Assembly (NCBI GenBank): GCA_964495075.1
Contig: CAZBUJ010000017.1
Location: 1,762 to 65,761 of the forward strand
Origin: an uncultured Phycisphaeraceae bacterium
GTDB taxonomy: Bacteria; Planctomycetota; Phycisphaerae; UBA1845
DNA: 64,000 nucleotides
Direction of reading: 5' to 3'
Positions 38,152 through 53,598 of the stretch are shown here, one piece after another. Under the pieces are notes generated by a model. That model made no database searches. It was not told where the DNA came from and saw only the letters and a program-made list of their open reading frames with translations. The translations under genes were made by a program, and so were the position numbers. How positions within the stretch are numbered: position 1 is the first letter of the stretch; every line of letters begins with the position of its first letter.

Positions 38152-38427
38152 TGCACCATGGTGAATGAGGCGAAAAAGAGGTTCACCATGACGCCGGACG
38201 GCGGCGACCGCCAGCGCCTTGAGGCGCTCGCGGGGCGATCGAATCCGGCTTTCTCACTTCCGCATGTCGTCAACTGCGCGACCAATCGGTTCCGGAACGA
38301 GGCAGAGGTTCCGCCGCAGATTCCGACCCGGACAATCTTCTGAGAGATCACGGCTGATGGCGAGCAAGTACAGCAGGACCGCATGACGGAGCTCCCGCGC
38401 GTTCCAGGCCGAGGCAGGACAAGCGCC

Positions 38428-39657
38428 ATGGCGATAATCAGTCTTTTCAGCGCCTCTTATTGCCACGGGCGAGAAATCGCCCAAGGCGTACGAGAAAAGC
38501 TCGGCTACAACCTCTTGAGCAACGAGGAATTGCTCGCGGAGGCGTCGAAGCGCTTCCACGTACCAGCGGACAAGCTCGCAAGAGCCATGCACGGTCCGGT
38601 GTCAGTGTTCAACCGGATAACCCACGAAAGAGAGCGCAATCTTGCGTACATCCGGGTGACCCTGGCCGAGATGATCCAACAGGACAATCTGGTTTACCAC
38701 GGGTTTGCCGGTCACCTCCTGCCCAGAGACCTGCCGCATGTGCTGCGGGTCTGTCTCGTGGCCAAGCTGGAACGCAGGACCGCCCTGGCGGCTCAAGCCG
38801 AGGGGATTCCGGCCGCCGCGGCGCAAAAGCTGGTTTCCAAGGAGGATGAGGAGAGAAAACGTTGGACCCTCAACCTCTTTGGTCTCAGCCCGTGGGACAA
38901 GGGGCTGTACGATATACTTCTGCCCATGGACTCCACGGGCGTGGACGAGGCCGTGACCGTGATCGCCGAACATGCCGGCAAGCCACCCGTTAAGACAACG
39001 CGGGCCGCGCGAGCCGCCATCAAGGGCTTCTTGCTCACCGCCCAAGTGCAACTGGCCCTCGCCCAGAAAGGACATGATGTTGACCTGGATGTGTCGTCTG
39101 AGGACGGCGTCGTGACGGTCACCATAAACCGATTCGTCCTGCGGCTGGAACACTTGAAAAACGAGTTGCGCGGAGTGGTCCTTGGCGTCCCGGGGGTGAA
39201 AGACATGCGGACGGAGCTGGGCCCGCATTTCTATCCGCCCAGCCGGTATGACAAAGTCGTTGAAGATTACCAGCCCAAGTTCCTTCTCGTTGACGACGAG
39301 AAAGAGTTCGTCCTCACCCTTTCCGAACGCCTCGAGACGAGGAATCTCGGGTCGGCCATCGCATACAACGGGGAGGAGGCACTGTCGATCATGGAGACGG
39401 ACGCTCCGGATGTGATGGTTCTGGATCTCAAGATGCCCGGGATCGATGGCCTGGAGGTCTTGCGCAGGGTGAAACGGGAGAAGCCAGCCACGGAGGTCGT
39501 CATCCTCACCGGCCACGGCTCCGAGCAAGAGGAGCGGGCGGCCATGGAGCTTGGTGCCTTTGCCTACCTCAGCAAGCCGGTCAATATCGACGTCCTCGCC
39601 GAGACCATGAAGCAGGCCTACAACCGGGCCAGAATGCGCAAAGGCGCGCAGTCGTAG
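38428..39657 (+). CDS. Response regulator: cytidylate-kinase-like domain + BON-like segment + C-terminal receiver
   Basis: MAIISLFSASYCHGREIA..LGY, NLVYHG.AGH.L..HVLRV, YDILL. Receiver LLVDDE..VLDLKMPGIDG..ILTGHG..YLSKP. Confidence 0.8.
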   Translation: MAIISLFSASYCHGREIAQGVREKLGYNLLSNEELLAEASKRFHVPADKLARAMHGPVSVFNRITHERERNLAYIRVTLAEMIQQDNLVYHGFAGHLLPRDLPHVLRVCLVAKLERRTALAAQAEGIPAAAAQKLVSKEDEERKRWTLNLFGLSPWDKGLYDILLPMDSTGVDEAVTVIAEHAGKPPVKTTRAARAAIKGFLLTAQVQLALAQKGHDVDLDVSSEDGVVTVTINRFVLRLEHLKNELRGVVLGVPGVKDMRTELGPHFYPPSRYDKVVEDYQPKFLLVDDEKEFVLTLSERLETRNLGSAIAYNGEEALSIMETDAPDVMVLDLKMPGIDGLEVLRRVKREKPATEVVILTGHGSEQEERAAMELGAFAYLSKPVNIDVLAETMKQAYNRARMRKGAQS

Positions 39658-39688
39658 GGCGTTGCCCCGAAGAACGAGCAAACGACAC

Positions 39689-41398
39689 ATGGCACTTGGC
39701 CCGCAGTCAAACGACGGTGAGAGCCCCCAGGTGGGACCACTCGTATCGGAGAGGCGCTACCGCCGGATGCTGCTCGTCTCCGTTTCATCGATATCGCTGG
39801 TCGCCATCATCCCGTTGGTCGTCCTGACCGGCGCGAACTACCACCAGTATGAAGAGGCGTTTCACGTCGAGTCCCTTCGTCCGATCACACGTTTTTGTGC
39901 GAGCGCCAAGCTCTCGTTGGAGGCTTTCCTCTCGGAACGCGTCTCGGCCCTTTCTTTGGTTATCCAGACGGAATCGCCCGCCGATCTGCAAGACCCGCAA
40001 AAACTCAACAAGCTTCTGAGCAAACTGAAGCAGACCTTTGGTGGATTCATCGACCTGGGCCTGATCGACGGTACGGGTACGCAGGTGAGCTATGCCGGGC
40101 CCTATGAGCTCCAAGGCAAGAGCTACGCGGAACAAGATTGGTTCCACGACGTGGGGGCCCGTGGCGTGCATGTCAGCGACGTGTTCTTGGGACACCGGCA
40201 CGTGCCCCACTTCGTCATCGCCGTCAGTTTTGACACGGACGCAGGTGCTTACTTCGTGTTACGAGCGACGATCGACACCGACCGAATCGTACGTCAAATA
40301 GAGGCCCTGGCCATGCGCCCCTCCGATGACGCCTTTCTCGTCAACCGGGAAGGGACGCTTCAAACTCCATCTCGGTTCTATGGCGATGCGCTGGAGCCTT
40401 GTCCTCTGCCGGTGCCCCCGATGTCCACTCAAGCGGAAGTCCTGGAAAGCCGAGACGAGGGGGGCATTCCCATCATCATCGGCTACGCGTTCATTGACCG
40501 CTCGCCCTTCGTGCTGATGCTCCTGCACCGGCCAGGACCGATGCAAGCCAGCTGGCTGTCCTTGCGGCGCGACCTTATCCTGTTCCTGGCGATCAGCATC
40601 GTCATCATCCTGGGTGTCGTCTTTGGGGGCTCGAAGTACATGGTCAATCGAGCTCGCCAAGCGGACTTGAGACGCGCGGCCGTGTATCACAATATGGAGT
40701 ACACGAACAAGATGGCGGCCATTGGCCGCCTGGCGGCCGGGGTAGCTCACGAAGTCAACAATCCCCTGGCCATCATCAACCAGAAGGCGGGCCTTCACAA
40801 AGACCTGCTTTGCCGTGCTGACGGGCTTCCGCCGAAGGAGAAGATGGTGGAGCTGGTCGACGCCGTGCTGGAATCCGTCGAGCGCTGTGGAGCCATAACG
40901 CATCGTCTGCTGGGTTTTGCCAAACATATGGACGTCCAGCGAGAGGGCATTGACCTGGAGATCCTCATTAAGGGCGTGTTGGGCTTCCTCGAAAAGGAAG
41001 CCGCCTACCGAAACCTCCAGGTGACGTTCAACATGGAAGAGGGCGTTCCGACCATCGTCAGCGATCGCGGACAGCTTCAGCAGGTGTTCTTGAACATCGT
41101 CAACAACGCCTTTGCGGCGGTCGAGGATAGAGGACAGATCGGTATTTCAATAGCGAACGTGGACTCGGATCATGTGAGAATCAGCATTGCTGACAACGGC
41201 CGGGGAATCGCGGAGGACAACCTGAAGCACATCTTTGAGCCGTTTTTCACGACCAAGACGGGGACCGGCACCGGATTGGGTCTGTCCATCACCTATGGAA
41301 TCGTCCAGAAACTGGGCGGGAAGATCGATGTCGCCAGCAAACTGGGCGAAGGCACGTGTTTCAAGGTTATTCTGCCCGTTCAGCGGGAATACGCGTAG
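39689..41398 (+). CDS. Membrane sensor histidine kinase (dCache-like sensor, NtrB-type core)
   Basis: Two TM helices around a Cache-like region. [42 protein letters not shown]. Confidence 0.92.
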
Positions 41399-41407
41399 GA
41401 ACTCCGA

Positions 41408-41791
41408 ATGGACCCCGTTCATGTTCTAATCGTTGACGACGAACACCAGTTTGTGGACGCCGTGGTCGAGCGGCTGCGACTGAGAGGATTCAATGCAGAC
41501 GGCGCGACCAGTGGACAAGATGCCATGGAATTGCTGCGTCAGAGGCCCTACGACGTGGTCGTGCTCGACGTGAAGATGCCGGGGGTGGGTGGATTCAATG
41601 TCATCCGCAAGATCAAAGAGGAGTGGCCCAACCTGCGGGTGGTGCTGATCACCGGCCACGGCTCATCGCAGGACGCGGAAGAAGGCTTGCAGCTGGGCGC
41701 CTTCCGATACTTGATGAAGCCGGTGAGTATCGAGGATCTGATCAGCGTGTTTCCTGCGGCATCGGGAAGCAAGCAGGATGCCAGACAATGA
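41408..41791 (+). CDS. Single-domain response regulator
   Basis: LIVDDE, VLDVKMPG, LITGHG, YLMKP; no output domain. Confidence 0.9.
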   Translation: MDPVHVLIVDDEHQFVDAVVERLRLRGFNADGATSGQDAMELLRQRPYDVVVLDVKMPGVGGFNVIRKIKEEWPNLRVVLITGHGSSQDAEEGLQLGAFRYLMKPVSIEDLISVFPAASGSKQDARQ

Positions 41792-42483
41792 GTGACGCCG
41801 AAGAACAACTCCTTCGCGAAAAGGGCTTCGCCTTCTTTGGTGCCATCACCGCCAGCCTCTCGCACGAAATCAATAACGTCTTCGCGATCATCAACGAGCT
41901 TTCCGGCCTGCTCGACGATCACTTCCACGCGGCCGAGAACGGCGCTCCGCTCGACGTGGAGCGACTGAAGGGAGCGGCACAACGCATTGCGGCCCAGGTG
42001 CGACGCGGCCAAGACTACGTCGAGGGGCTCAATGGTTTCGCCCACACGGTCGATCATCGGCGAATCGCCATCGCGCTCAACGAAACCGTCGAGGCCATCA
42101 CGACTCTTTGCCGCCGGTTCGGCGTGTTGCGTCAGGTGGAGATCGAAACCCGTCTCCCCGAGACGTCTCCCCGGCTCGAAGGCAGCGCGTTTGATTTGCA
42201 GCATATCATCTACCGCTGCATCGATATCGCCCTCGACGCGTCCCAACGGGGGGATACCGTCCACATCGAGGTCGAGGCGCAAGGCGAAGGGGCACGCCTG
42301 GTTTTCGCAAGCGGTTCCGTCGCGGAATCCGTGGCGGAACTGGAGTCCAAACGGGATTTTTTGGCCGTGCTGGTAACTGGAACGCGTGGCGTGGTCGAGT
42401 CGGTGATCCAAGCCGGTCAACCCGTTCGGTTGGTGGTATCTCTTCCACACGCCCTGAACAGCCGAGGGCAAGATCATGACTGA
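41788..42483 (+). CDS. Histidine kinase-like protein with degenerate ATPase domain (possible phosphotransferase)
   Basis: H-box ASLSHEINNVFAII. No N-box Asn, DxGxG or GxGLGL boxes. No sensor. ATGA overlap with the previous gene. Confidence 0.75.
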   Translation: MSDAEEQLLREKGFAFFGAITASLSHEINNVFAIINELSGLLDDHFHAAENGAPLDVERLKGAAQRIAAQVRRGQDYVEGLNGFAHTVDHRRIAIALNETVEAITTLCRRFGVLRQVEIETRLPETSPRLEGSAFDLQHIIYRCIDIALDASQRGDTVHIEVEAQGEGARLVFASGSVAESVAELESKRDFLAVLVTGTRGVVESVIQAGQPVRLVVSLPHALNSRGQDHD

Positions 42484-42907
42484 TACCAGAGTCCTGCTGG
42501 TTGATGACGAAAGAGAGTTTACCGAGGCGCTGGCTTTGCGGCTTGAGACTCGCGGGCTCAAGGTGGATGTCGCCGAGCGCGGTGAGATCGCGGTTGAGAA
42601 GGTCCAGGAGAAGTCCTTTGACGCCATCGTTCTCGACCTGGCCATGCCGGGCATGGACGGCATCGAAACTCTCAAACGCCTTCGGGAGCTCAACCCGGAC
42701 TCCCAGGTGCTTCTGCTCACCGGACGGGCTACGGTGCAGAAGGCTACGGAAGCCATGCGGCTCGGCGCGTTGGACCTGCTGGAAAAACCGGTCGATATCG
42801 AAGTGCTGGTGGCGAAAATCGAGGAGGCGGCCAGGAATACGACGCGGCTCACCGAGAAGCGGATTGACGAAGACGTGACCGATATCTTGCGCAAGAAGGG
42901 CTGGTAG
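42476..42907 (+). CDS. Single-domain response regulator with short C-terminal helix
   Basis: LLVDDE, VLDLAMPGMDG, LLTG, LLEKP. Confidence 0.9.
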   Translation: MTDTRVLLVDDEREFTEALALRLETRGLKVDVAERGEIAVEKVQEKSFDAIVLDLAMPGMDGIETLKRLRELNPDSQVLLLTGRATVQKATEAMRLGALDLLEKPVDIEVLVAKIEEAARNTTRLTEKRIDEDVTDILRKKGW

Positions 42908-42912
42908 GATCA

Positions 42913-43467
42913 ATGACGTCGGAGAGCAGCGAGAACGGGATGGCGACACGGCGGGTCGGCGAAATCATGATTCCGCTCAAGGACTATCCGCATCTGCCGG
43001 TCTGGTCTTCAGTACGCGATGCCGTGGAACTGATGCACCGCGCCGAACTCACGGTCCGAGGTCGCAAATCCCTGCCGCGGGTCATCTTTCTGTTTGACCT
43101 CGACGGCTCGATTGCCGGGACCGTCCGTCGCCGTGACCTCATGCGGGGTTTGGAGCCCAAGTTCCTGGTCAGCCAACCCTTGGAATACCGCCTGAAGCTG
43201 TTCGACGTGGAGGTTGACCCCGGTTTGTCGGAGCTGTCGTTTGACAAAGTGGTGAAAGGCATTCGGGAACAGGCGGACCGACCGGTCACCGATGTCATGT
43301 GTCCCCTCGAAAGAACCATCGATTACGACGATCACATCATGAAAGCGGTTTACGCGATGGTCAGCCACAGCCTGAGCATCCTCCCCGTCGTTCAGGACAA
43401 CAAAGTGGTCGGAGTCATCAGGACCGTCGATGTGTTCCACGAGCTGGCGGAGCTGGTGGTCCAATGA
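42913..43467 (+). CDS. CBS-domain protein
   Basis: VGEIMIP..SVRDAV, GTVRRRDL, VTDVM, LPVVQDNKVVGVIRTVD. Confidence 0.85.
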   Translation: MTSESSENGMATRRVGEIMIPLKDYPHLPVWSSVRDAVELMHRAELTVRGRKSLPRVIFLFDLDGSIAGTVRRRDLMRGLEPKFLVSQPLEYRLKLFDVEVDPGLSELSFDKVVKGIREQADRPVTDVMCPLERTIDYDDHIMKAVYAMVSHSLSILPVVQDNKVVGVIRTVDVFHELAELVVQ

Positions 43468-44999
43468 CCGACAGAACGTTGTCCACGGCGTCTTCCGGTA
43501 TGAGATCCGCCGCCGCCCGTCTGGGCGAGAGCGGCGGTTCGGTGAAAGGCCGCGGGATCGATTGGCGAAGGGTGTTCTTCATCTTTCTCGGGATCGGCCT
43601 CTTCGTTCAGGTGTGGCTGTCGCCCCCATGGAGCCCCGTCACGGATCCCGAAGGCAAGACCTTCGTCCTGAGCCGAGAAGGCAAGATCTCCCTCGCCCTG
43701 TTTCTCCTCGCCGCCACCTGGTGGGTGACCGAAGTAATCCCCATCGGGATCACCGCCATCACGGTCGGTGTGGTGCAGGCCCTGTTCGTGATTCGCCCGG
43801 CTCGCACCGCGTTCACCGATTTCATGGATCCATCCGTCTGGTTCATATTCGGATCTTTGATGATCGGCATGGTGTTTACGAAAACCGGTTTCACACGACG
43901 TCTGGCATACAAGATGCTCTCCGTGGTGGGCGAGCGAACCAGCATGATCTACCTGGGGTGCTTCGTGATGACGGCGGCCCTCACGCTGGTGATGGCTCAT
44001 ACCGCGGTGGCCGCGACCGTCTACCCGCTGTTCCTCGCCATCTATGCCCTTTACGAGGAGGACGGGCGACCGACCCGGTTCGGCAAGGGGCTCTTCATGG
44101 GGATGGCGTTCGTTGCCGGAGCCGGCAGTATCGTTACCCTCCTCGGCGCGGCCCGCGGGGCGGTCGCCATTGGCTTTTTCCGGGAAATCACCGGACAGAC
44201 CGTCACCTTCTTCGGGCTTACCTATTACCTGTTCCCCGTGGGTGCGGTCATGACCCTGTTGCTGTGGGTCTTTGTGATGGTCTGGTACCGACCGGAAAAG
44301 AAGACAATCCCCGGCCTCCGGAACCGGGCCCAGCGATTGTACGCCAGCCTCGGCCCGATTTCCCGGAACGAAATCGTCGCCGTGGCGATTGTCGTGGCGG
44401 TGATCGTCGTTCTGAGCCTCCGGTCATTTGTCCCCACCCTTTCGTTCCTGGATAAAAGCGCCATCATCCTGTCCGCCACCGTGCTCTTCTTCCTGCTGAA
44501 GGTGGTCTCGCTGGAGGACCTGGAAGGCACCCCGTGGAACATCGTGCTGTTGTTCGGGGGCGCCATGAGCATCGGCTTCTGTTTGTGGCAAACCGGCGCC
44601 GCCGAGTGGCTGGCGGTGTCGTGGCTGAGCATGTTTCACGGCGCCTCGTGGTTCGTGTTCATCATGGGAATTGCATTCTTTGTTCTCATCATGACCAACC
44701 TGATCATGAACGTGGCGGCCATTGCCATCGTGCTGCCCGTGGCCCTCAAGATGGCCGAGTACGTCCACGTCGCATCCGATGTCATTCTCTTCTCGTGCCT
44801 GGTAACGGCGGGCATGCCGTTTCTGCTGATTGTCGGGGCAGCCCCCAACGCCATCGCCTACAACAGCAAGATGTTCACCACACGCGAGTTCTTCACGGCC
44901 GGCCTGCCGGCCAGCGCCATCCTCATGGTCGTGCTTGGCCTGTTCGTGTGGATCATCTGGCCGTTGATGGGAATGCCGATTCTCGTCCCGCCGACGTAA
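43464..44999 (+). CDS. SLC13/DASS family anion (sulfate or dicarboxylate) permease
   Basis: WWVTEVIPIGITA, MAHTA, GSIVTLLG, PWNIVLLFGG, TNLIMNVA, GAAPNAIAY. ATGA overlap with the CBS gene. Confidence 0.88.
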   Translation: MTDRTLSTASSGMRSAAARLGESGGSVKGRGIDWRRVFFIFLGIGLFVQVWLSPPWSPVTDPEGKTFVLSREGKISLALFLLAATWWVTEVIPIGITAITVGVVQALFVIRPARTAFTDFMDPSVWFIFGSLMIGMVFTKTGFTRRLAYKMLSVVGERTSMIYLGCFVMTAALTLVMAHTAVAATVYPLFLAIYALYEEDGRPTRFGKGLFMGMAFVAGAGSIVTLLGAARGAVAIGFFREITGQTVTFFGLTYYLFPVGAVMTLLLWVFVMVWYRPEKKTIPGLRNRAQRLYASLGPISRNEIVAVAIVVAVIVVLSLRSFVPTLSFLDKSAIILSATVLFFLLKVVSLEDLEGTPWNIVLLFGGAMSIGFCLWQTGAAEWLAVSWLSMFHGASWFVFIMGIAFFVLIMTNLIMNVAAIAIVLPVALKMAEYVHVASDVILFSCLVTAGMPFLLIVGAAPNAIAYNSKMFTTREFFTAGLPASAILMVVLGLFVWIIWPLMGMPILVPPT

Positions 45000-45037: not shown

Positions 45038-46597
45038 TCAGAGCCGCAGCGTGAGTTGCACGTAAAGAGAATCACTGTCGTCGGCGGGCTGGGCCGTCCG
45101 CGTGACGAACGTGCCGGGCACGAAGTGCGCATAGCCGACCTGGATCGCCAGATGTCGTCCCATCTTATAGCTGGCCCGGAGGTCGATCTCCTGGCCGATG
45201 AAGGAGCCGGCCGCGCCGGTGGGATCACGCAGGCCGGGCACCGCCCAACCGTCCGTCGACGAGGCCAGCCAGTAAGCCCGGTAGAAGGCCTCCAGCCGAG
45301 CATCGGTCGTCGGGGCAAAGGAGCAGTAGGCCGTGGGGTTGATCATGTTCTCCCAGATAAACAGATCTGAGTACCCGTACATGGTGTGCGATGCGCCGTA
45401 GAGACGGTTGAATCGCTGGTTCACACCATCGTTCGGGTCGCGGTCGCCACTCGCATAATTGATCCAGCCGGCCACCCTCGCCCGGTACGGATGCGTAAAC
45501 GTGTAGCCGATCTCGGCGTGCATGGCGAAGGCTCGCCGGGTGAGGTCGCCATCGTCGCCGAACTGAAAAGCCGTGTCGAAATCGTAATCGAAGCCGGTCG
45601 CACCGATCAGGCCGAAGCCGTGAACGCCGATGGTGTGGATCTCCTCGTCCGCATCGTCGGGATCTTTGGCGTCGCGGTCGAGGATGAAATAGAAAAGGCT
45701 GAGGTTGACGTGTGGTGACCAGCCTCGCCAGTAGGCCGTCAGCCCGTAGAACCACGCCTCCTCGTCGCTTGGGTCGAGGGATAACGGACGGCACTCGACC
45801 GGCATCGCGGCAAAGAAATCGATCTCCCAGTCGGTCGTCTGCTCGCCCAGCGTGAGGCGGAACCCGTCGAAGGCGGTGGTGGAGTTGCGGAACCGGTTGC
45901 GGGCGACCAGGCGGCGGTCAATCGAGTCGAATGACATGCGCCCCACGCGAAACCGCAGCGGGTAGCCCTCCACGGCGGCGTCATGGACGTACAATTCGCC
46001 GAAGAGTTGAAGAACGTCGGCCTCATCGATGTTCGACCGGTCGACGAGGTCATCGCCGAACCTTCGCGAGTCCTGGAACTCCATTCCGAACCGCAGCGGA
46101 TCCAGGATCTCGCGAACGCCGACGTAGGCGCGGTTCCGCATGAAGAAGACGTTACCCGACTCCTGATCGGCACGGTAGTGGTCATCACGAAGCTCGAAGC
46201 GGGTACGCTGCTCGATGCCCACGTCGAACCAGTGGAACGACTCCAGGCCCTGCCGTCCGAACTGCCCGGCGTGAGCGGCGAGGGGCCGGAGGTATCCCGC
46301 CGGGTCGGGCTCGCGCTGGGCGCCGATGGCCGCGGAGTCGATGATCTCGCGGTTCGACGCGTCTTTCGGGACCGCCGCGACGCCGGCGTTTTGCGGGGCG
46401 ATGTCCGTCATGTCGTCCGCGACCGGTTGGGCAGGCTGGGTTGTGGCGGGCTGCGTGGTCGGGTCCCGCGGGGCCGGCTGCGATGCGGCGGTGTCACCGA
46501 TCCGCGGTTCTGGTCCACCGCTCACGGCGGTGGTCGCGCCGGGCAGCAGCACCGCCAGGCAAACGCACGCGCGCGTCATGCGGGCTGATCGGTTCAT
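45038..46597 (-). CDS. Alginate-export (AlgE-like) family outer-membrane beta-barrel protein
   Basis: Signal peptide, EQRTRFE, EFQDSR, RVGR..RLVA..FRN...FDG, YASGD, GQEIDL, terminal YVQLTLRL beta-signal. Confidence 0.8.
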   Translation of the reverse strand: MNRSARMTRACVCLAVLLPGATTAVSGGPEPRIGDTAASQPAPRDPTTQPATTQPAQPVADDMTDIAPQNAGVAAVPKDASNREIIDSAAIGAQREPDPAGYLRPLAAHAGQFGRQGLESFHWFDVGIEQRTRFELRDDHYRADQESGNVFFMRNRAYVGVREILDPLRFGMEFQDSRRFGDDLVDRSNIDEADVLQLFGELYVHDAAVEGYPLRFRVGRMSFDSIDRRLVARNRFRNSTTAFDGFRLTLGEQTTDWEIDFFAAMPVECRPLSLDPSDEEAWFYGLTAYWRGWSPHVNLSLFYFILDRDAKDPDDADEEIHTIGVHGFGLIGATGFDYDFDTAFQFGDDGDLTRRAFAMHAEIGYTFTHPYRARVAGWINYASGDRDPNDGVNQRFNRLYGASHTMYGYSDLFIWENMINPTAYCSFAPTTDARLEAFYRAYWLASSTDGWAVPGLRDPTGAAGSFIGQEIDLRASYKMGRHLAIQVGYAHFVPGTFVTRTAQPADDSDSLYVQLTLRL

Positions 46598-46609
46598 GGA
46601 ACAAACTGC

Positions 46610-48907
46610 TCACTCAGCCGAGTCAATCGCCGCCTTGAGTTGATGCCCGATCGGCCGGTCGGGGCACAGCTCGATCATGCGTTCGGCGAGGGCGCGGGCT
46701 TCGCCGAGGCGGCCCCGGCGAAACAGGTAATCCGTGTACGCGTGCAGATAGTCGAGCCCGTCCGGTTCGATCTCCAGCGCGCGGCGGAGCTTCTGCCCGG
46801 CCTCGTCCAGCCGGCCCAGTTGCTGCAGGAGCAATCCGAGGTTGTAGTGCACCCGGGCGTCGTTCGGTCGGGCTTCGGCGGCCCGCGCGAGCCACACCAA
46901 GCCCTCGTCAGGCCGGTCCATCTCGACCAGCAACAGGCCCAACGAGGACATCGCGTCGGACTGATCCGGATCATCCCGCACGAGCTCACGCAGCAAGGCT
47001 TCCGCTTCGTCGTTGCGTCCCTGGGCGTTCAACAGCACGGCGAGGTTTGCCTTTGCCGGCGCGAACAGATCGTCGATCGCGAGCGCGGCGCGATAGCAGC
47101 GCTCGGCGGCGGCCACGTCGCCGAGCGCGTACTCCAGGTTGCCGAGATTGAAGTTGGAGCTGGAGAAGTCGAGCGTGTAGGTCATCGACTGACGGTACTC
47201 GGCGAGAGCGGCGGAAAAGGCTTGCTGTTGGTACGGTTTCAGTCGGTCGCGTGGGACGCTCGCCAGGCGCGATACGGCCTCCAGGCGCACGGCTTTGACC
47301 GGATCCGAAAGCAACGGCGCGAGTCGCTCGATGTCGTCTATCGAACTCAGCGGAAGGTGGGCGGCGGCGCTGTGGCGGAGCAGCGCCTCGTCCCAGCCCG
47401 TTGCTGCCCGCAGTGCCGCGAGTCCGTCCGCGCGCGGTGCACGGGCCAGTAACTCGAGCGCGGTCGCGCGGACGATCGGAGCCTGCAGATCGCTTCCGGC
47501 CAGACGCACCAGCTCCGGCTGCGCCGCTGGGTCGCCCTGGCGGGCGGCGGCGAACGTCGTTCCGAAATGAGGCTTGCGGGCCTCGCCGTACCACCGGCGA
47601 TAGGCGTCCACGGACCACGCCAACGGCTGGTCGCTATGGCAGCCGGATTGCATGCAGGCGTTCGGCGTCCCGATCTCGGCCGAAAGGTCCGGGCGCGGCC
47701 TGCGGAAGCTGTGGTCGGCACGCCAGTCGATGACCATGTAACGCTGCTCGACCATATGGCACTTCACGCACTTCGCGCCGTCGGATTCCTGACCCTCGTG
47801 AAGCCTCTTGTGGAAGTGATGGTCACGCGTATCATAGACTTCGCGCTGGTGGCACTGCAAACACAGTTCGTTGCCCGGGCGATGCAGCTTCAGGCTGTGG
47901 CTGTCGTGGCAGTCCTGGCACGATACCGCCCGGGCGTACATCTTGCTCTGCAGGAACGAGCCGTAGACGTAGACCTCGCCAAGGATCTGACCGTCCGCGT
48001 GGTACAACCCCTCCTGAAGCAGGCTGGGCAACATGTAATCCAGCAGTTCGGCGCCGGTGTGGTCGTAGTCGCCCAACTCGGCCCGGCGGGAATGGCATGG
48101 CGCGCACAGCTCGACCAGTCGGCGTGACGCGATCGGTGACGTCGTGACCGCCAGCCCCATGTTCGGCAGTTCAGGACGCGCCATCGGCGGGATCTCCGCC
48201 CAGGCGACGTGGCGCGAGCCCGGACCGTGGCACGCCTCGCAGCCGACGTCGATGTCCGACCAGGTCGTGGCGTACGTGTCAGTCGCCGCGTCGTAACCCT
48301 TCCGCAGGTTGGTCGAATGGCACTCCGCGCACATCGAGTTCCAGTTCTGCCCGGCGCGGGTCCAGTGGAGCCAGTCGTCCGGCGGGATGTCGGCGTCCGG
48401 GTATTGCCGATACCAGCGGTCGCTCTCCACGTCCCAGGTCACGTTCAGCACTTGCAGCCGACCGCCGGGAAACGGCACAAGGTACTGCTGCAGCGGCTCG
48501 TGTCCGAAAACGTGGGTGATCTCGAACTCGGCCATCCGGCCGCCCGGTCCTTCCGTGAACACGAAGAACTTGCCGTCACGGCGGTAGAAGCGCGAGGTGA
48601 CGCCGCGGTACGTGAACGTCGCGCCCTCGAAGTCGCCGAGCACGGTATCGTCGGTGGCGATGTCCATCGCCTTGTCGTGATCGGAACCTTCCCAGCGGGC
48701 GTATTCGACGGGATGACACTCCTGACACGACGCCGTGCCGGCGAACGTCGGCTCGACCGCAGTGATGTCGCGCGGGCCCTGCGGGGCGGAACGCAGCAAC
48801 GATAACGGCACCGCTGCCACGATGGTGGCCAGCGCCGTCAGGCCCACGGCCTCCCAGCGCCCTAATCGGGGGCCGTGCCCGTCGGTGCCCCGCGACGCGG
48901 CGCTCAT
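46610..48907 (-). CDS. Membrane-anchored multiheme c-type cytochrome with HEAT/TPR C-terminus
   Basis: CQECH, CAECH, CEACH, CAPCH, CQDCH, CLQCH, CVKCH plus atypical CMQSGCH. N-terminal TM helix; TPR motifs (NLGNL, HYNLGLL). Confidence 0.88.
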   Translation of the reverse strand: MSAASRGTDGHGPRLGRWEAVGLTALATIVAAVPLSLLRSAPQGPRDITAVEPTFAGTASCQECHPVEYARWEGSDHDKAMDIATDDTVLGDFEGATFTYRGVTSRFYRRDGKFFVFTEGPGGRMAEFEITHVFGHEPLQQYLVPFPGGRLQVLNVTWDVESDRWYRQYPDADIPPDDWLHWTRAGQNWNSMCAECHSTNLRKGYDAATDTYATTWSDIDVGCEACHGPGSRHVAWAEIPPMARPELPNMGLAVTTSPIASRRLVELCAPCHSRRAELGDYDHTGAELLDYMLPSLLQEGLYHADGQILGEVYVYGSFLQSKMYARAVSCQDCHDSHSLKLHRPGNELCLQCHQREVYDTRDHHFHKRLHEGQESDGAKCVKCHMVEQRYMVIDWRADHSFRRPRPDLSAEIGTPNACMQSGCHSDQPLAWSVDAYRRWYGEARKPHFGTTFAAARQGDPAAQPELVRLAGSDLQAPIVRATALELLARAPRADGLAALRAATGWDEALLRHSAAAHLPLSSIDDIERLAPLLSDPVKAVRLEAVSRLASVPRDRLKPYQQQAFSAALAEYRQSMTYTLDFSSSNFNLGNLEYALGDVAAAERCYRAALAIDDLFAPAKANLAVLLNAQGRNDEAEALLRELVRDDPDQSDAMSSLGLLLVEMDRPDEGLVWLARAAEARPNDARVHYNLGLLLQQLGRLDEAGQKLRRALEIEPDGLDYLHAYTDYLFRRGRLGEARALAERMIELCPDRPIGHQLKAAIDSAE

Positions 48908-49452
48908 GGGTGGGCCTCTTGCGAGGCCAGGAACGACGTCCGCCGAATGCGTCGTGCCGTGTCGACCTTGACGATCCCATTCTCGATCCGGACTGGATAG
49001 AGGTCGAGGGGGCGGGACGCGGGCGGGGCCAACACCGCTCCGGTCATGTCAAAGGACGAAGCATGGCACGGGCACTTGAAACAACCGTCTTCTGCGTCCC
49101 AGGACGCGGTGCAGCCGAGATGCGTACACGTGCGGTCGAGGGCGAGGAAGCCACCGGTTTCGAGACGGGCAAGGTAGAACTTCCCGTCGGGGAACGCGGT
49201 TACCGAGTTGCGGGCGAAGCGATCCACCGGCCCCGCGATGACGACCGAGGCCTCGGCTGCGGCCCGCGCCCGCCGGGGCCGGAGAGTCGACGCCACGACC
49301 CAGAAGACCTCCACGGTGAGCGCCGCCACCAAACCGGTCCAGATCCAGTTCAGCAGGCGCCGGCGTGATGTGGAAGCAGGGACAGAGGCGGCGGCCTCCT
49401 GCACAGGCGAGTGCGTAACACTGGGCGGTTTGTCGGGGTTGTTACGGCTCAT
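48904..49452 (-). CDS. Rieske 2Fe-2S subunit of a Rieske/cytochrome b complex
   Basis: SRRRLL Tat-like motif + TM helix; CTHLGC and CPCHAS; PPASRPL. Confidence 0.9.
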   Translation of the reverse strand: MSRNNPDKPPSVTHSPVQEAAASVPASTSRRRLLNWIWTGLVAALTVEVFWVVASTLRPRRARAAAEASVVIAGPVDRFARNSVTAFPDGKFYLARLETGGFLALDRTCTHLGCTASWDAEDGCFKCPCHASSFDMTGAVLAPPASRPLDLYPVRIENGIVKVDTARRIRRTSFLASQEAHP

Positions 49453-49455
49453 GCC

Positions 49456-50808
49456 TCAGCCTCCCCACGGAGTCGTCAGTGCCATGCCTTCGCCGCGCCA
49501 GTATTCGCCGATGATGGTCAACGTCCCGAAAGTCAAGGCCAGGAATACCACGAGCGTCTGTACGGATTCGTTCCGGCCGAGTCCGAACCAGCGGCCCGTC
49601 ACGACGGTGACGAGCACGGCAGTAACGGCGTACGCGAGGGTCGGGATCACACCACGCACGAACCACCCGGGTCCGGCGACCGAGGCCGCGGCGGCGTCGA
49701 GCACCACACCCGCGACACAGATCGCGATCGCCGCGATCGCCGCGACGCCCGCCGCACGCCGTGCGGCGGCGGTCAGGAACCAACGTCCGGCGGGCCCGCG
49801 GTCGTCCCCCAGCCAGGGCAGGGCCACGAATCCGGCGACCGCCGTGAGAGGAAGCACCAGTACGGCGAATACCGGGTGCAGGTGGATGAGCATCTCCTGG
49901 AAACCCGTGAAATACCAGGGGGCTTTCGCCGGGTTCGGGCTCATGCCGAGATTGGCGCGTTCCCCGATCGGTGCACCGACCACCGCGCCCAGCAGAACCA
50001 CCGTGGCGAGCACCGCCAGGGCCTGGCAGATTTCGCGCATCAGCAGATCCGGAAAGAACATCACGGTACCATCGTCTCGGCTGTCGCTCTCAGTTCGGCG
50101 GTCGCTCGGATCGACCGCGGGCGGCTGGATCACGCCGCCGGCCTTCCGCACCCGCCAGAAGTGCAACGCCATGAGTGCGATGACCAGGGCCGGTAGCACG
50201 GTGGTGTGGAAGGTGTAAAAGGTCAGCAGCGTGTTAGGGCCGATCGTGGCGCCGCCGCGAACGGCCTGCTGCAAGGCTTCGCCGAGCCAGGGAATGTAGG
50301 CAAGCATGCCCGTCGAGATGGTGACGGCCCAGTACGCGCGCTGATCCCAGGGCAGCAGATAGCCGGTGAACGCGGCGGCGAGTACCAGGAGCATCAGGCC
50401 GGCGCCGATGATCCAGTTGAGCCGCCGCGGGCGGTGGTAGCCACCGGTGAGCACGACCCGCGCCACGTGCAGGAGGACGACGGCGATTAGCAGGTTGGCG
50501 CTCCAGTAGTGCATGCCGCGGACGAGCGGGCCGAAGCGGATCGCGGTGGAGAACGTGCGCACGGAATCGTACGCGCCGTCGGGGACGGGCTGGTAGACCA
50601 GCAGCATCAGCATCCCGGTGCACGCCAGCGTCACCCAGAGGACCAGCGACGAGCCTCCCAGGCCGAAGGTGTGCGTCCATCGAACCGAACGGCCCGATAT
50701 CCGGATCGGCCGGAGGTGAAGCAGGAACAGGCCGCGCGTCACGCGGGCCCGCTCAACATCGGTGCGGGGCCAGCCCCAGGCAGTGGTTTTCTTGACAGGG
50801 CTTGCCAT
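49456..50808 (-). CDS. Cytochrome b (b6-like N-terminal part fused to subunit IV-like part)
   Basis: RGMHYWSAN..LH, FTGYLLPWDQRAYWA, FHT..LHF, FFPD, NPAKAPWYF. Confidence 0.9.
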   Translation of the reverse strand: MASPVKKTTAWGWPRTDVERARVTRGLFLLHLRPIRISGRSVRWTHTFGLGGSSLVLWVTLACTGMLMLLVYQPVPDGAYDSVRTFSTAIRFGPLVRGMHYWSANLLIAVVLLHVARVVLTGGYHRPRRLNWIIGAGLMLLVLAAAFTGYLLPWDQRAYWAVTISTGMLAYIPWLGEALQQAVRGGATIGPNTLLTFYTFHTTVLPALVIALMALHFWRVRKAGGVIQPPAVDPSDRRTESDSRDDGTVMFFPDLLMREICQALAVLATVVLLGAVVGAPIGERANLGMSPNPAKAPWYFTGFQEMLIHLHPVFAVLVLPLTAVAGFVALPWLGDDRGPAGRWFLTAAARRAAGVAAIAAIAICVAGVVLDAAAASVAGPGWFVRGVIPTLAYAVTAVLVTVVTGRWFGLGRNESVQTLVVFLALTFGTLTIIGEYWRGEGMALTTPWGG

Positions 50809-50855
50809 CGCGTTTCGCTCTGTCGCGGATCACGGCTGCGGTGCAACCAGTCGAC

Positions 50856-50883
50856 AGTCTAGCGGGCGACAAGTGGCTTTCAA
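50856..50883 (-). promoter_or_regulatory. Sigma70-type promoter candidate for the cytochrome b operon
   Basis: Minus strand TTGAAA-N16-TAGACT, about 50 nt upstream of the ATG. Confidence 0.5.
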
Positions 50884-51036: not shown

Positions 51037-53517
51037 TCATGGCGCGTCGGAGAGAACCAGCTTGCGACTCTCGAACGGAGTCGGGTAGGCGGTCAGCCAG
51101 GCTTCCGGTCTCACGTCGTTCTTGCCGTCTTTGGTGATGAGTACGACCACCTCAATGGTCCGGCCCGTCAGCCCGCGAGACAGCGGGAAGTAGTACGTGT
51201 AGTCGCCGTCCCTTTCGACGTTGTGATACTCCCACGTGTTGCTGGGATACGATACGGCTCGATCGGGGGCGCCGACCGGTTTCCCATCGACTCGAATCGC
51301 CGCGTAGGCGCCCTCGTTGCCGTGGCGGCCGTTGATCGCTATGGCGAGCGTCGCGTTGGGCGGTATCGCCTCCGCAACGAAGGAAAGCGTCCAGGCGGCG
51401 GTGGCCTTTTTCTTGGTGTACGAGTCGAGCAGATTCGACGCTCGCCACGCGGATCGGTCGATCGCGCGTCCGCGGTAATACGCCTCGATCTCGGCCAGTC
51501 TCCGCGGCGGTCCGGCGATCCGGAGGTAGCGCACCGGATGTTCGGAGGGCACCTTGATTACCGCGATCGTCCCCTCGCCCGCCCAGGACGGAGCCAGGGC
51601 TGTCCAGGTGCGAAGATCGGCCGACACCTCCGCGGTCGCGTCCTCGGCGAACCGGTGCAGCGCCGGGTTGAGATCAGGCTCCTCGCGATCGCGGATGCGC
51701 AGGACCACACGATCCACGCGCACCACCTCGCCGAAGTCGACCCGCAGTGGCCGGTTCTCCACTCTCGCCACGAAATGCGTGCCCAGATCGCCGTCGAACA
51801 AATTGCGATCCCAGGTACCGCGGTTGATGAACATTTTCTGTGCGAAGAAGGCTTCGCGGGCCGCCTGGACCTGCGGGACGCGACTCGGTCCGGAACGGGC
51901 GACGCAGCGCACTTCCAGGGCGTTGCTGTCTGCGGCAAAGCACGTCGCCTCGTACAACGCCTCGGCATCCTCCGGCACCGAACACGGTTTGAGATCCCCG
52001 ATCTTGCGGTGCCACGGCTTGATCAACGGCGCTCCGCCAAAAGAGACCTTCACCTCGCGCCCCTCGATCCACGCGGCATTCGGGGCGCCGTCGAGCTCAG
52101 CCCGTTTGAAACGTCGCTTCCCGGATGCCAGCCGCACCGACGCCTCGGTCCCCGGCATCCCCAGCAGCTTCACGATGACGGGCTTGCCGGGCACGTCGCG
52201 CACAACCTCGTAGTCGCACCCCTCGACCCCGACGTCGCCGATAACGGTCTTCGTAGCAAGCAGAAGGCACGTGCGGAAGGGCTGCACGGCCACCTCGACG
52301 GAAGCTCCACCGGCGAACCGGCCGATGATGCGTTCGGACGGATGCAGCCGCCGGAGCTCGATCGTATCTCCCCCCACCAGCCCGATCGAGTTATCGAGTT
52401 GGACCACGTACGTTACGGGATGCCATGTCAGGTTGCGAAGGGTAACGAACCGCATCTCGCCGTTGCCACGTGAAACGGCGTGCGGGCCGTACTGCTCCTC
52501 CGGCAGCAGGATGGCGGAGGTCAGAACCTCCCGGTGGCGCCGTTGCAGATTGAACAGGCGGGCCAGCTTGGGAAACTCATCGTCGCGCAAGAACCACGGA
52601 TTACCGTAAATCTGCGGGGAGATGATGAGCGCGCGGTTGAACGCCTGGAGCACCAGCTCGTCTTCCCAGTAGTCGAGGCAGGATGAAAAGCAGACGCCGT
52701 GATCCTCCATGAGCCGGTTCAGGCCCGGCGTCACTCCGCGGGCGAGCGCCCCGGCCCGGTGGTGGGGTGCCGTGCCGGTGTTGTACATGAACACGTCGAT
52801 GTAGGTTTCGGCTCCTTCCCAGAGCGAGGTGGTTACAAACGGTTCGGCCTTCCCCAGCGCGACGCGCTCGTTCAGCACGATCAGGTCGGGGCAGTGAGCC
52901 CGACAGGCCTGCAGGGCGTGGATGAGCGCATCCTGCTTTTCCGGGCGTAATCCGCCGGCCACGGCGTCGAGCTTGAAGAGAAGGAAGTTGTACTCACGGC
53001 AGAACGCGACCAGCATGTCGGTGCGCTGCCGCTCTTCGGCCGGCGTGTCGCCGAAGCCGTCCGGACCGAGCCAGATCCCCAGCCGGCAGCCGAACGAGGC
53101 GGCCTTCTCGACCAACGGCGCGAAACCGTGCGGGAACTGCGCTTTGAATTCCTCCGACGCCATCGTGCCGTAGTGCGCCGGAATGAGACGCCCCACGCCC
53201 GCCGTGTACGGCCCGTCGTCGATGTTCCCGACGTCCAGCGAGTAGATGTCGAGCCGCATGCCGTATTCGTCGTGCAACCACTTGAAGAACTCGAGATTGG
53301 TGAGCGTGTGTCGCTCGGTGGTGCCCTCGTACTGGCTGTTGATCCAGTCGAAGTAGTGGGATCGCGATGGCGTACTCTGGCCGGGGCCCGCCACACGGGC
53401 GTCGGGCGTTTGCCCGACGGCGCCAGGCAATGCCGGGAGAAGCAAACACCAGGCGAGAAGCGGCAGGTGCGTGGGCGGCGCAAGACGCGGGCCCGATTCC
53501 AACGGTGACGACGGCAT
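51037..53517 (-). CDS. Secreted protein of unknown function, glycoside-hydrolase-like, with an F5/8-like module
   Basis: AGGAG RBS + signal peptide. LDIYSLDVG, LGIWLGP, LFKLDAV (clan-D-like pattern). NLFDGD..LRVDFGE..VRYLRI..LAEIE. Confidence 0.6.
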   Translation of the reverse strand: MPSSPLESGPRLAPPTHLPLLAWCLLLPALPGAVGQTPDARVAGPGQSTPSRSHYFDWINSQYEGTTERHTLTNLEFFKWLHDEYGMRLDIYSLDVGNIDDGPYTAGVGRLIPAHYGTMASEEFKAQFPHGFAPLVEKAASFGCRLGIWLGPDGFGDTPAEERQRTDMLVAFCREYNFLLFKLDAVAGGLRPEKQDALIHALQACRAHCPDLIVLNERVALGKAEPFVTTSLWEGAETYIDVFMYNTGTAPHHRAGALARGVTPGLNRLMEDHGVCFSSCLDYWEDELVLQAFNRALIISPQIYGNPWFLRDDEFPKLARLFNLQRRHREVLTSAILLPEEQYGPHAVSRGNGEMRFVTLRNLTWHPVTYVVQLDNSIGLVGGDTIELRRLHPSERIIGRFAGGASVEVAVQPFRTCLLLATKTVIGDVGVEGCDYEVVRDVPGKPVIVKLLGMPGTEASVRLASGKRRFKRAELDGAPNAAWIEGREVKVSFGGAPLIKPWHRKIGDLKPCSVPEDAEALYEATCFAADSNALEVRCVARSGPSRVPQVQAAREAFFAQKMFINRGTWDRNLFDGDLGTHFVARVENRPLRVDFGEVVRVDRVVLRIRDREEPDLNPALHRFAEDATAEVSADLRTWTALAPSWAGEGTIAVIKVPSEHPVRYLRIAGPPRRLAEIEAYYRGRAIDRSAWRASNLLDSYTKKKATAAWTLSFVAEAIPPNATLAIAINGRHGNEGAYAAIRVDGKPVGAPDRAVSYPSNTWEYHNVERDGDYTYYFPLSRGLTGRTIEVVVLITKDGKNDVRPEAWLTAYPTPFESRKLVLSDAP

Positions 53518-53598
53518 GACGATTTCTCCTGGAGCGCGCGTCACGAGCCCGCGCCATGGCGCGTCGGATACTCGAGGAACGGCGGTGCTCGCCCCGGC

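Follow-up and report, generated by a model that had tools for sequence, protein, structure and literature searches.

A c1-less cytochrome b, Rieske and octaheme cytochrome unit in an uncultured Phycisphaeraceae bacterium, and its possible role in the maturation of sulfatases

The window considered here is a stretch of 64,000 nucleotides from contig CAZBUJ010000017.1 (C17) of assembly GCA_964495075.1 (G000; 6.1 Mb, 94% complete), from an uncultured Phycisphaeraceae bacterium. It contains four open reading frames, all on the minus strand, that encode in order a cytochrome b, a Rieske protein, an octaheme c-type cytochrome with a TPR region, and an outer-membrane barrel, or porin (Table 1). The first two genes are 3 nt apart, the second and third overlap (ATGA), and 12 nt separate the third from the fourth. 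The products match the Pfam families Cytochrome_B, Rieske, c554/c7/TPR and Alginate_exp (E 1.5e-79 for the barrel), and neither the reading frames nor Pfam reveal a gene for cytochrome c1 or f among the genes of the locus. A first-pass annotation, made from the DNA without database searches, had this layout right: the co-oriented genes and their joins, cytochrome b ahead of Rieske with no c1/f, the seven CxxCH motifs plus one CX4CH (C418-H424) in the multiheme protein, its HEAT/TPR scaffold (TPR by Pfam, a HEAT-like stretch by alphaRep matches at profile positions ~431-560) and the AlgE-like barrel. It also put a promoter, TTGAAA-16-TAGACT, in front of the four genes. The site is there and scores 9/12, but one was found where shuffled sequences give 1.0 +/- 0.8, so it is no evidence for a promoter. 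From the spacing of the genes, co-transcription of octaheme and porin in this genome is plausible.

Table 1. Coordinates of the genes and motifs discussed, in window positions
Feature	Position	Strand	Remarks
Long cytochrome b	49456..50808	-	450 aa; b6 and subunit IV parts fused
Rieske [2Fe-2S] protein	48904..49452	-	182 aa; twin-Arg N-terminus and one membrane helix
Octaheme c-type cytochrome, with N-terminal membrane anchor and HEAT/TPR tail	46610..48907	-	765 aa; OcwA/MccA fold
AlgE-family 18-strand outer-membrane channel	45038..46597	-	519 aa; co-oriented neighbor, outside the conserved unit
Qo motif A296-P-W-Y299	49912..49923	-	read from the sequence; APWY clade
Heme-2 CxxCH motif (C193-H197)	48317..48331	-	putative active-site heme, judged from OcwA, c554 and MccA
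Conserved E311-V-Y313-V-Y315	47963..47977	-	aligned with the His-His pair over heme 2 in OcwA (6I5B)
TTGAAA-16-TAGACT promoter-like match	50856..50883	-	at chance level

The first three genes recur together in distant bacteria. A scan of genome contigs for the octaheme, made with query peptides and so favoring close relatives, gave 50 loci, of which 8 weak hits from outside the family (L043-L050) were dropped; metagenomes supplied the best 80 of 421 loci. A locus was considered informative if it extended at least 1.2 kb upstream, for Rieske and cytochrome b, or at least 800 nt downstream, for the porin. Rieske genes lie upstream of the octaheme in 33/39 genome loci and cytochrome b genes in 32/39, and the linked loci come from Desulfobacterota, Acidobacteriota, Bacteroidales, Gemmatimonadota and others. 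Both genes are upstream in 28/53 metagenome loci, and in 15/16 of those where the octaheme is at least 57% identical. The same picture emerges from the cytochrome b side. Among the 59 genomes of the family containing G062 (the genome of a Desulfocapsa locus), the cytochrome b subfamily occurs in 17 (E <= 1e-130), with an octaheme gene adjoining in all 17. No bc genes were found beside the octaheme in nine sampled gammaproteobacterial carriers, nor in Shewanella. Cytochrome b, Rieske and octaheme are a conserved c1-less three-gene unit, found across several phyla, and their products very probably form a physical complex at the inner membrane.

In a FastTree phylogeny the linked octahemes fall into a single clade of 86 rows, 79 of them with bc genes (SH-like support 99), while a second small group of 4 rows is placed elsewhere. 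The octaheme of the window nests with L001 and L002, the latter from Acidobacteriota, at 73-75% full-length identity. Five genomes of the same genus as G000 have octaheme paralogs at 32-34% identity or none. The unit was likely gained horizontally in G000, because of its place in the tree and its absence from these five relatives; base composition gives no sign of it, the unit's GC and tetranucleotide values being those of the genome. A different arrangement is seen in a Gemmatimonadota metagenome-assembled genome (MAG), where a diheme cytochrome and a cytochrome b-Rieske pair lie between two divergent octaheme-TPR paralogs (L006:1393-9373). Neither anSME nor FGE, enzymes discussed below, was detected in this MAG, which gives 13 sulfatase hits.

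The porin is another matter. A hidden Markov model (HMM) built from 14 orthologs found an AlgE-family gene near the unit in 0/29 genome loci, 0/50 metagenome loci and 0/16 further loci of the G062 family, and an unfiltered run of the model at E <= 1 through 170 overlapping loci (1.88 Mb) gave no hit. Conversely, cytochrome b, Rieske and octaheme are near porin orthologs in 0/13 loci. Those orthologs follow cysA of a sulfate ABC operon in 6/13 loci, including all four same-genus loci fetched, and the porin is present in all five same-genus genomes at 52-53% identity; no match to sbp was found in G000. The predicted structure has 18 strands (pLDDT 74), as AlgE does, and its best match is AlgE itself (3RBH; E 2e-16, TM 0.71). 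On synteny and barrel size the porin is rejected as a part of the redox chain. The MtrB barrel has about 26 strands, and a porin-cytochrome conduit of the MtrAB/Pcc sort can be set aside, the adjacency not being conserved and the predicted 18-strand, AlgE-like barrel not being of the large kind that could hold a heme wire. The first-pass annotation had drawn a four-part chain from the quinone pool to a multiheme protein whose TPRs dock on the porin as AlgK does on AlgE, and it asked for a neighborhood search for all four genes. As a set of genes it holds as far as the octaheme and fails at the porin: the search finds three genes kept and the fourth never beside them, an outcome that the annotation itself had named as refuting its model. 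The porin is best viewed as a resident of the genome, probably an anion channel, with the unit now upstream of it.

The cytochrome b and Rieske proteins have the marks of a Rieske/cytochrome b complex. The former has a Qo motif and four heme-ligating histidines (H100, H114, H201, H216) that are invariant in 15/15 aligned sequences, and the latter is an exported protein whose twin arginine and iron-sulfur boxes (C109, H111, C114, C127, C129, H130) are invariant in 22/22, both disulfide cysteines being kept. It is not a canonical bc1 or b6f complex: there is no c1/f gene, no PEWY motif and no cysteine for heme ci, the window protein having FGLGG at that place. A survey of 73 linked cytochrome b sequences found APWY at Qo in 55/73, PEWY or PDWY in 0/73, and no CxGG (the heme ci cysteine) among the motifs read, which 64 of the 73 yielded. 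The Rieske signature S-x-F appears in 81/88 sequences. According to Kao and Hunte (PMC4122944), the S-F class has a potential of about +260 mV, predicted here by class for the window protein as well, and APWY is described as characteristic of complexes that operate in reverse, among them a Geobacter metallireducens complex whose genes cluster with p-cresol methylhydroxylase; all APWY complexes were uncharacterised at the time of writing. The unit has both the APWY motif and a Rieske signature of the mid-high- to high-potential type, and is assigned to the APWY clade on these motifs.

G000 possesses a second Rieske/cytochrome b system (C84:5063-7486), with a split b6 (heme ci motif CFGG) and subunit IV (PEWY) and a G-x-F Rieske; 13-heme and 5-heme cytochromes lie on its flanks. 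The copy in the window is therefore an extra one, since there is a separate PEWY-type split complex. The genome is rich in multiheme cytochromes generally: large clusters are found on C51, C84 and C172, with up to 23 CxxCH per frame, and 28 frames have at least three such motifs.

What does the octaheme resemble? Its heme domain, modeled with confidence (pLDDT 90), matches OcwA (6I5B; Z 21.2, rmsd, the root-mean-square deviation, 3.3 over 329 residues), OmhA (6QVM; Z 14.6) and MccA (4RKM; Z 9.8, rmsd 4.4 over 277 residues), and its profile finds OcwA at E 3.7e-39. By fold and heme arrangement it belongs to the OcwA/MccA/c554 multiheme superfamily, with hemes 1-4 like those of c554, hemes 5-8 matching OcwA hemes 6-9, and the beta-sheet insertion of the OcwA, OmhA and MccA group. 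The structures of OTR and HAO match weakly (Z 3.5-5.0), leaving room for a distant relation. MccA has a long last heme motif and a CxxCK motif at its active-site heme. The last motif of the octaheme varies in length in a similar way, CX4CH in 64/112 aligned homologs and CX2CH in 48/112, but the protein has no CxxCK, the motif named for the active site of NrfA (PMC6703420). Every heme motif ends in histidine, which rejects the octaheme as an MccA/SirA sulfite reductase or NrfA. It also departs from the OcwA, OmhA and MccA group in having a HEAT/TPR tail of about 300 residues and an anchor beside a bc core: the linked clade has a conserved hydrophobic N-terminal helix, consistent with insertion in the inner membrane.

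The pocket is different as well. In OcwA a pair of histidines covers heme 2 (PMC6703420, 6I5B). The pair aligns with Glu311-Val312 of the octaheme, followed by Tyr313 and Tyr315, and across 112 homologs conservation is 98% for E311, 99% for Y313 and 97% for Y315. By analogy, heme 2 (C193-H197) would be the active-site heme. OcwA heme 5 has no counterpart, Met323 stands where OcwA has a histidine, and Met385, after the seventh motif, corresponds to a methionine placed likewise in OcwA. These conserved methionines occupy ligand-like positions, and may be ligands that raise the potential. The family is large, with at least 7,995 homologs (7,995 of 7,998 scored candidates at E <= 1e-20), and those that have been named are labelled TPR, hypothetical or predicted cytochrome proteins. 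Two side branches deserve mention. Homologs without TPR that keep the His-His pocket (L263:2-2775 and L264:1-2739) adjoin genes for a b561-type cytochrome b and a triheme cytochrome, which pairs the fold with a different partner linked to quinone. Members of a distant paralog clade (L097, L098, L100, L006:1396-3834) have cysteine at or next to the position of Met323, possibly to give a His/Cys-ligated heme.

Apart from the bc genes, the commonest neighbor of the octaheme is a sulfatase, a link that the first-pass annotation did not notice. Of the loci whose flanks extend to 6 kb or more, 14/36 from genomes and 15/40 from metagenomes have one. These sulfatases have the invariant cysteine, mostly carry signal peptides, and are 23-68% identical to the first of them. 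In the G062 family, S1 sulfatases (E <= 1e-50) are found in 19/19 strong octaheme carriers versus 5/40 other genomes; G322, with a distant 449-aa homolog (E 3e-66) and no sulfatase, is counted among the others, and including it as a carrier would give 19/20. Among 250 gammaproteobacterial genomes, scored for four octaheme candidates each, sulfatases are found in 10/10 carriers versus 39/240 others. Four of the ten contributed to the sulfatase model, and the six that did not all have one. A second search with the heme domain through the 44 sulfatase-bearing non-carriers found just two distant homologs, both without TPR. The sulfatase lies within 10 kb of the octaheme in 7/19 carriers of the G062 family, where 0.36 are expected, and in 3/9 gammaproteobacteria, where 0.2 are expected, and in two cases the adjacent gene is the genome's only PF00884 hit. 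Such coupling to Cys-type S1 sulfatases is what one would look for in a maturase, and the unit is likely tied in function to these exported enzymes. Other genes recur near octaheme and sulfatase in L021, L031, L032, L028, L187, L184, L011 and L012: MoxR ATPase, DUF58 and DUF4381 genes, HAD hydrolases, DUF1254/DUF1214 proteins, and MetA-type or FadL barrels.

A 2007 paper, to go by its title, is said to have suggested a third prokaryotic system for maturing sulfatases. S1 sulfatases require conversion of a cysteine to formylglycine, for which two enzymes alone, FGE and anSME, are described (PMC13638132). Both known maturases proceed through a thioaldehyde (PMC13638132), the conversion being a two-electron oxidation. 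Do the octaheme carriers have these enzymes? In the G062 family, anSME (TIGR03942) scores above cut-off in 9/19 carriers and in 4/5 non-carriers with a sulfatase. In the other 10 carriers neither enzyme is detected: their PF03781 hits that score on a model of true FGE (four sequences from two of the FGE-bearing gammaproteobacterial non-carriers) all lack the catalytic cysteine pair and reach at most 36 bits, versus at least 67 for true FGEs, and two hits of 710-730 aa scored too low to display. Neither enzyme is found in any of the 10 gammaproteobacterial carriers, true FGE being present in 9/39 sulfatase-bearing non-carriers of that class. The same goes for four of five further carriers, these four having sulfatases, and for G000, which has a single CxPxR sulfatase with a signal peptide, on C79.

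I propose, tentatively, that the octaheme is a periplasmic heme oxidase that matures exported sulfatases. The HEAT/TPR tail would hold the exported sulfatase, and its active-site cysteine would be oxidised at heme 2, toward formylglycine. The electrons would travel through the hemes to Rieske, and a reverse Q cycle, driven by the proton gradient, would deliver them to the quinone pool. The nine gammaproteobacterial carriers sampled and Shewanella, whose octaheme genes have no adjoining bc genes, would use another acceptor. The parts of the proposal do not all merit the same trust. Given the APWY motif and the S-x-F Rieske (PMC4122944), reverse flow through the complex is fairly likely, probably the opposite of the direction, quinol to multiheme, that the first-pass annotation assumed. 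That the octaheme is the oxidase is possible, a reading of sequence and predicted fold favored because it is the simplest one to join the sulfatase link, the bc signatures and the altered pocket. The broadest form of the idea is the most doubtful: that the octaheme-HEAT/TPR family as a whole might be a third, heme-based, periplasmic class of sulfatase-maturing enzyme, which in the anaerobe-rich clade studied here is wired to a reverse APWY bc complex that spends proton-motive force so as to regenerate a high-potential oxidant without oxygen or S-adenosylmethionine (SAM).

There is a good deal to be said against it. I know of no heme precedent for the chemistry required. The known maturases rely on Cu/O2 or a radical to break a C-H bond (PMC13638132), OcwA, the closest solved relative, is a reductase (PMC6703420), and reverse flow is itself a proposal, all APWY complexes being uncharacterised according to PMC4122944. 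Around 60% of loci have no sulfatase within the fetched flank, and the window has none near the unit, G000's own being on C79. Kinship among the genomes, many of them incomplete MAGs, inflates the significance of the sulfatase counts, and octaheme and sulfatase genes could merely share a gene island of marine sediments. Then there is the distribution of the known maturases. anSME coexists with the octaheme in the nine family carriers and in G065, and strict mutual exclusion of the two is not observed (Fisher p 0.33 for the genomes that bear a sulfatase). All three systems are absent from G340. The absence of known maturases is weak evidence for maturation by the octaheme, since 30/39 gammaproteobacterial genomes with a sulfatase and no octaheme also have no detected anSME or FGE. 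About 15 of these have sulfatases that look exported by eye (e.g. L266, L269, L278, L283, L290), a hint that other ways of maturing them exist, or that contigs are missing.

An alternative view is that the unit serves the sulfatases in some way other than maturation: the octaheme would oxidise a breakdown product of sulfate esters (an alcohol, a phenol, sulfide or sulfite), or keep the exported sulfatase in its proper redox state, with electrons again going to quinone through a reverse bc complex. This would fit the co-occurrence with sulfatases in both samples, it has a precedent in the APWY complex associated with p-cresol methylhydroxylase (PMC4122944), and it has no difficulty with the nine carriers that have anSME besides. 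It is too much to expect, however, that sulfatases so diverse should share one small product other than sulfate. The long HEAT/TPR tail points to a client that is a protein, and many carriers would be left without a known maturase. I consider this view somewhat unlikely. Or perhaps the complex runs forward, quinol reducing the octaheme by way of Rieske, and the octaheme reducing nitrite, NO, hydroxylamine, peroxide or oxygen, the link to sulfatases reflecting no more than shared islands or lifestyle. The fold is nearest to that of OcwA, OmhA and MccA, and OcwA reduces nitrite and hydroxylamine (PMC6703420). A Rieske at about +260 mV lies downhill from menaquinol, a Rieske/cytochrome b complex with a multiheme acceptor has been proposed for Caldithrix (PMC5317091), and in one locus a superoxide dismutase gene lies just downstream. 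A forward reductase nonetheless leaves unexplained why sulfatases accompany the octaheme in 19/19 and 10/10 carriers and lie beside it about 15-20 times more often than chance would have it. The histidines over heme 2 in OcwA have been swapped for Glu-Val-Tyr, no nitrogen-oxide gene recurs among the clustered neighbors, and the Qo motif is mostly APWY, never PEWY or PDWY. A forward reductase is unlikely.

The four-part chain of the first-pass annotation, in which quinol feeds an octaheme whose TPRs sit on the porin, so as to export electrons or reduce an imported oxyanion, is far less likely still. It draws on the tight spacing and common orientation of the four genes in G000, on the ext cluster of Geobacter, where Rieske and cytochrome b genes sit together with multihemes and a porin (PMC5877670), and on the theme of anion uptake suggested by the sulfate-ABC context of the porin and a convergent DASS transporter. 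Synteny largely refutes it: the porin is missing from every informative locus and its orthologs lie apart from the redox genes, while the five same-genus genomes have the porin with no close octaheme. The predicted barrel of 18 strands and the octaheme's putative anchor in the inner membrane also argue against it. The AlgE-AlgK and MtrAB/Pcc systems resemble the locus in that a gene for an AlgE-fold barrel lies beside one for a TPR protein, but here the linkage is not conserved and the barrel's orthologs follow sulfate ABC genes.

Returning to the maturase proposal and its three-gene unit, how do they compare with systems already described? The annotation knew of no characterised system of that composition, yet a similar one, the extHIJKLMNOPQS cluster of Geobacter sulfurreducens (PMC5877670), had been described, and it has Rieske and cytochrome b, multihemes, a porin gene and no c1. 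It is the nearest such cluster on record, but its cytochromes are of other kinds. Its ExtP and ExtQ are split, where the window cytochrome b is fused; ExtI resembles phosphate porins, where the window porin is of the AlgE type; its porin link is conserved, where that of the window is not; and the four genes of the window include no rhodanese and nothing like ExtM or ExtN. Membership in the Ext group is rejected: the best NCBIfam matches of the window cytochrome b fall short of cut-off (ExtP, 251 bits of 290; ExtQ, 53 of 150), the porin has no ExtI match, and an UshA-like match reaches 57 of 275 bits. ExtKL (GSU2936, a five-heme selenoprotein) is, by locus tag and description, the MccSep of PMC13510729, and a search for the terms "Rieske" and "cytochrome b" found neither in the available part of that paper. 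The APWY complexes (PMC4122944) resemble the unit in Qo motif, mid-high-potential Rieske, a periplasmic redox enzyme as partner, occurrence in anaerobes and a proposed reverse Q cycle. Unlike the p-cresol methylhydroxylase case, where a flavocytochrome is the partner, the unit has an octaheme-HEAT/TPR protein in that role, together with a long cytochrome b without the heme ci cysteine, the order b, Rieske, octaheme, and a link to sulfatases. FGE (Cu/O2) and anSME (radical SAM) (PMC13638132) would share with the octaheme the proposed net reaction, from cysteine through a thioaldehyde to formylglycine, and the genomic coupling to Cys-type sulfatases; they have no relation to it in sequence or fold, and the octaheme would differ from them in being heme-based, periplasmic and linked to quinone as a sink. 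No title or abstract opening covered, with subscription papers mostly outside the coverage, describes the unit or a link between octaheme and sulfatase, nor do the passages available of PMC5317091, PMC5600118, PMC6315715, PMC8528874 and bioRxiv 10.64898/2026.05.27.727921, although the operon may appear in supplementary material to PMC5600118 or PMC4122944.

Convergent with the porin, on the plus strand at 38383-44999, are genes for a cytidylate-kinase-like response regulator, histidine kinases, small regulators, a CBS protein and the DASS transporter, a member of the sodium:sulfate symporter family. This region looks acquired, because its GC (58-61% versus 65.5% for the genome) and its tetranucleotide distance (beyond the 97.5th percentile) deviate from the rest. 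On the other side, 228 nt upstream of cytochrome b and in the same orientation, a gene at 51037-53544 (minus strand) encodes a protein of 835 aa that matches no family, although it has a weak F5/8 type C domain; it was not found in related octaheme loci.

Even if maturation is the wrong idea, there remains a widespread bc variant with a defined partner, apparently undescribed so far. As a compact set of three genes, it provides a direct test case for the reverse Q cycle; according to PMC4122944, none of the APWY-type bc complexes had been characterised. If the octaheme does mature sulfatases, this would be new chemistry for heme and would give a function to a large family that databases label "TPR protein". 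To bacteria in anoxic sediments, it would offer a route to active sulfatases.

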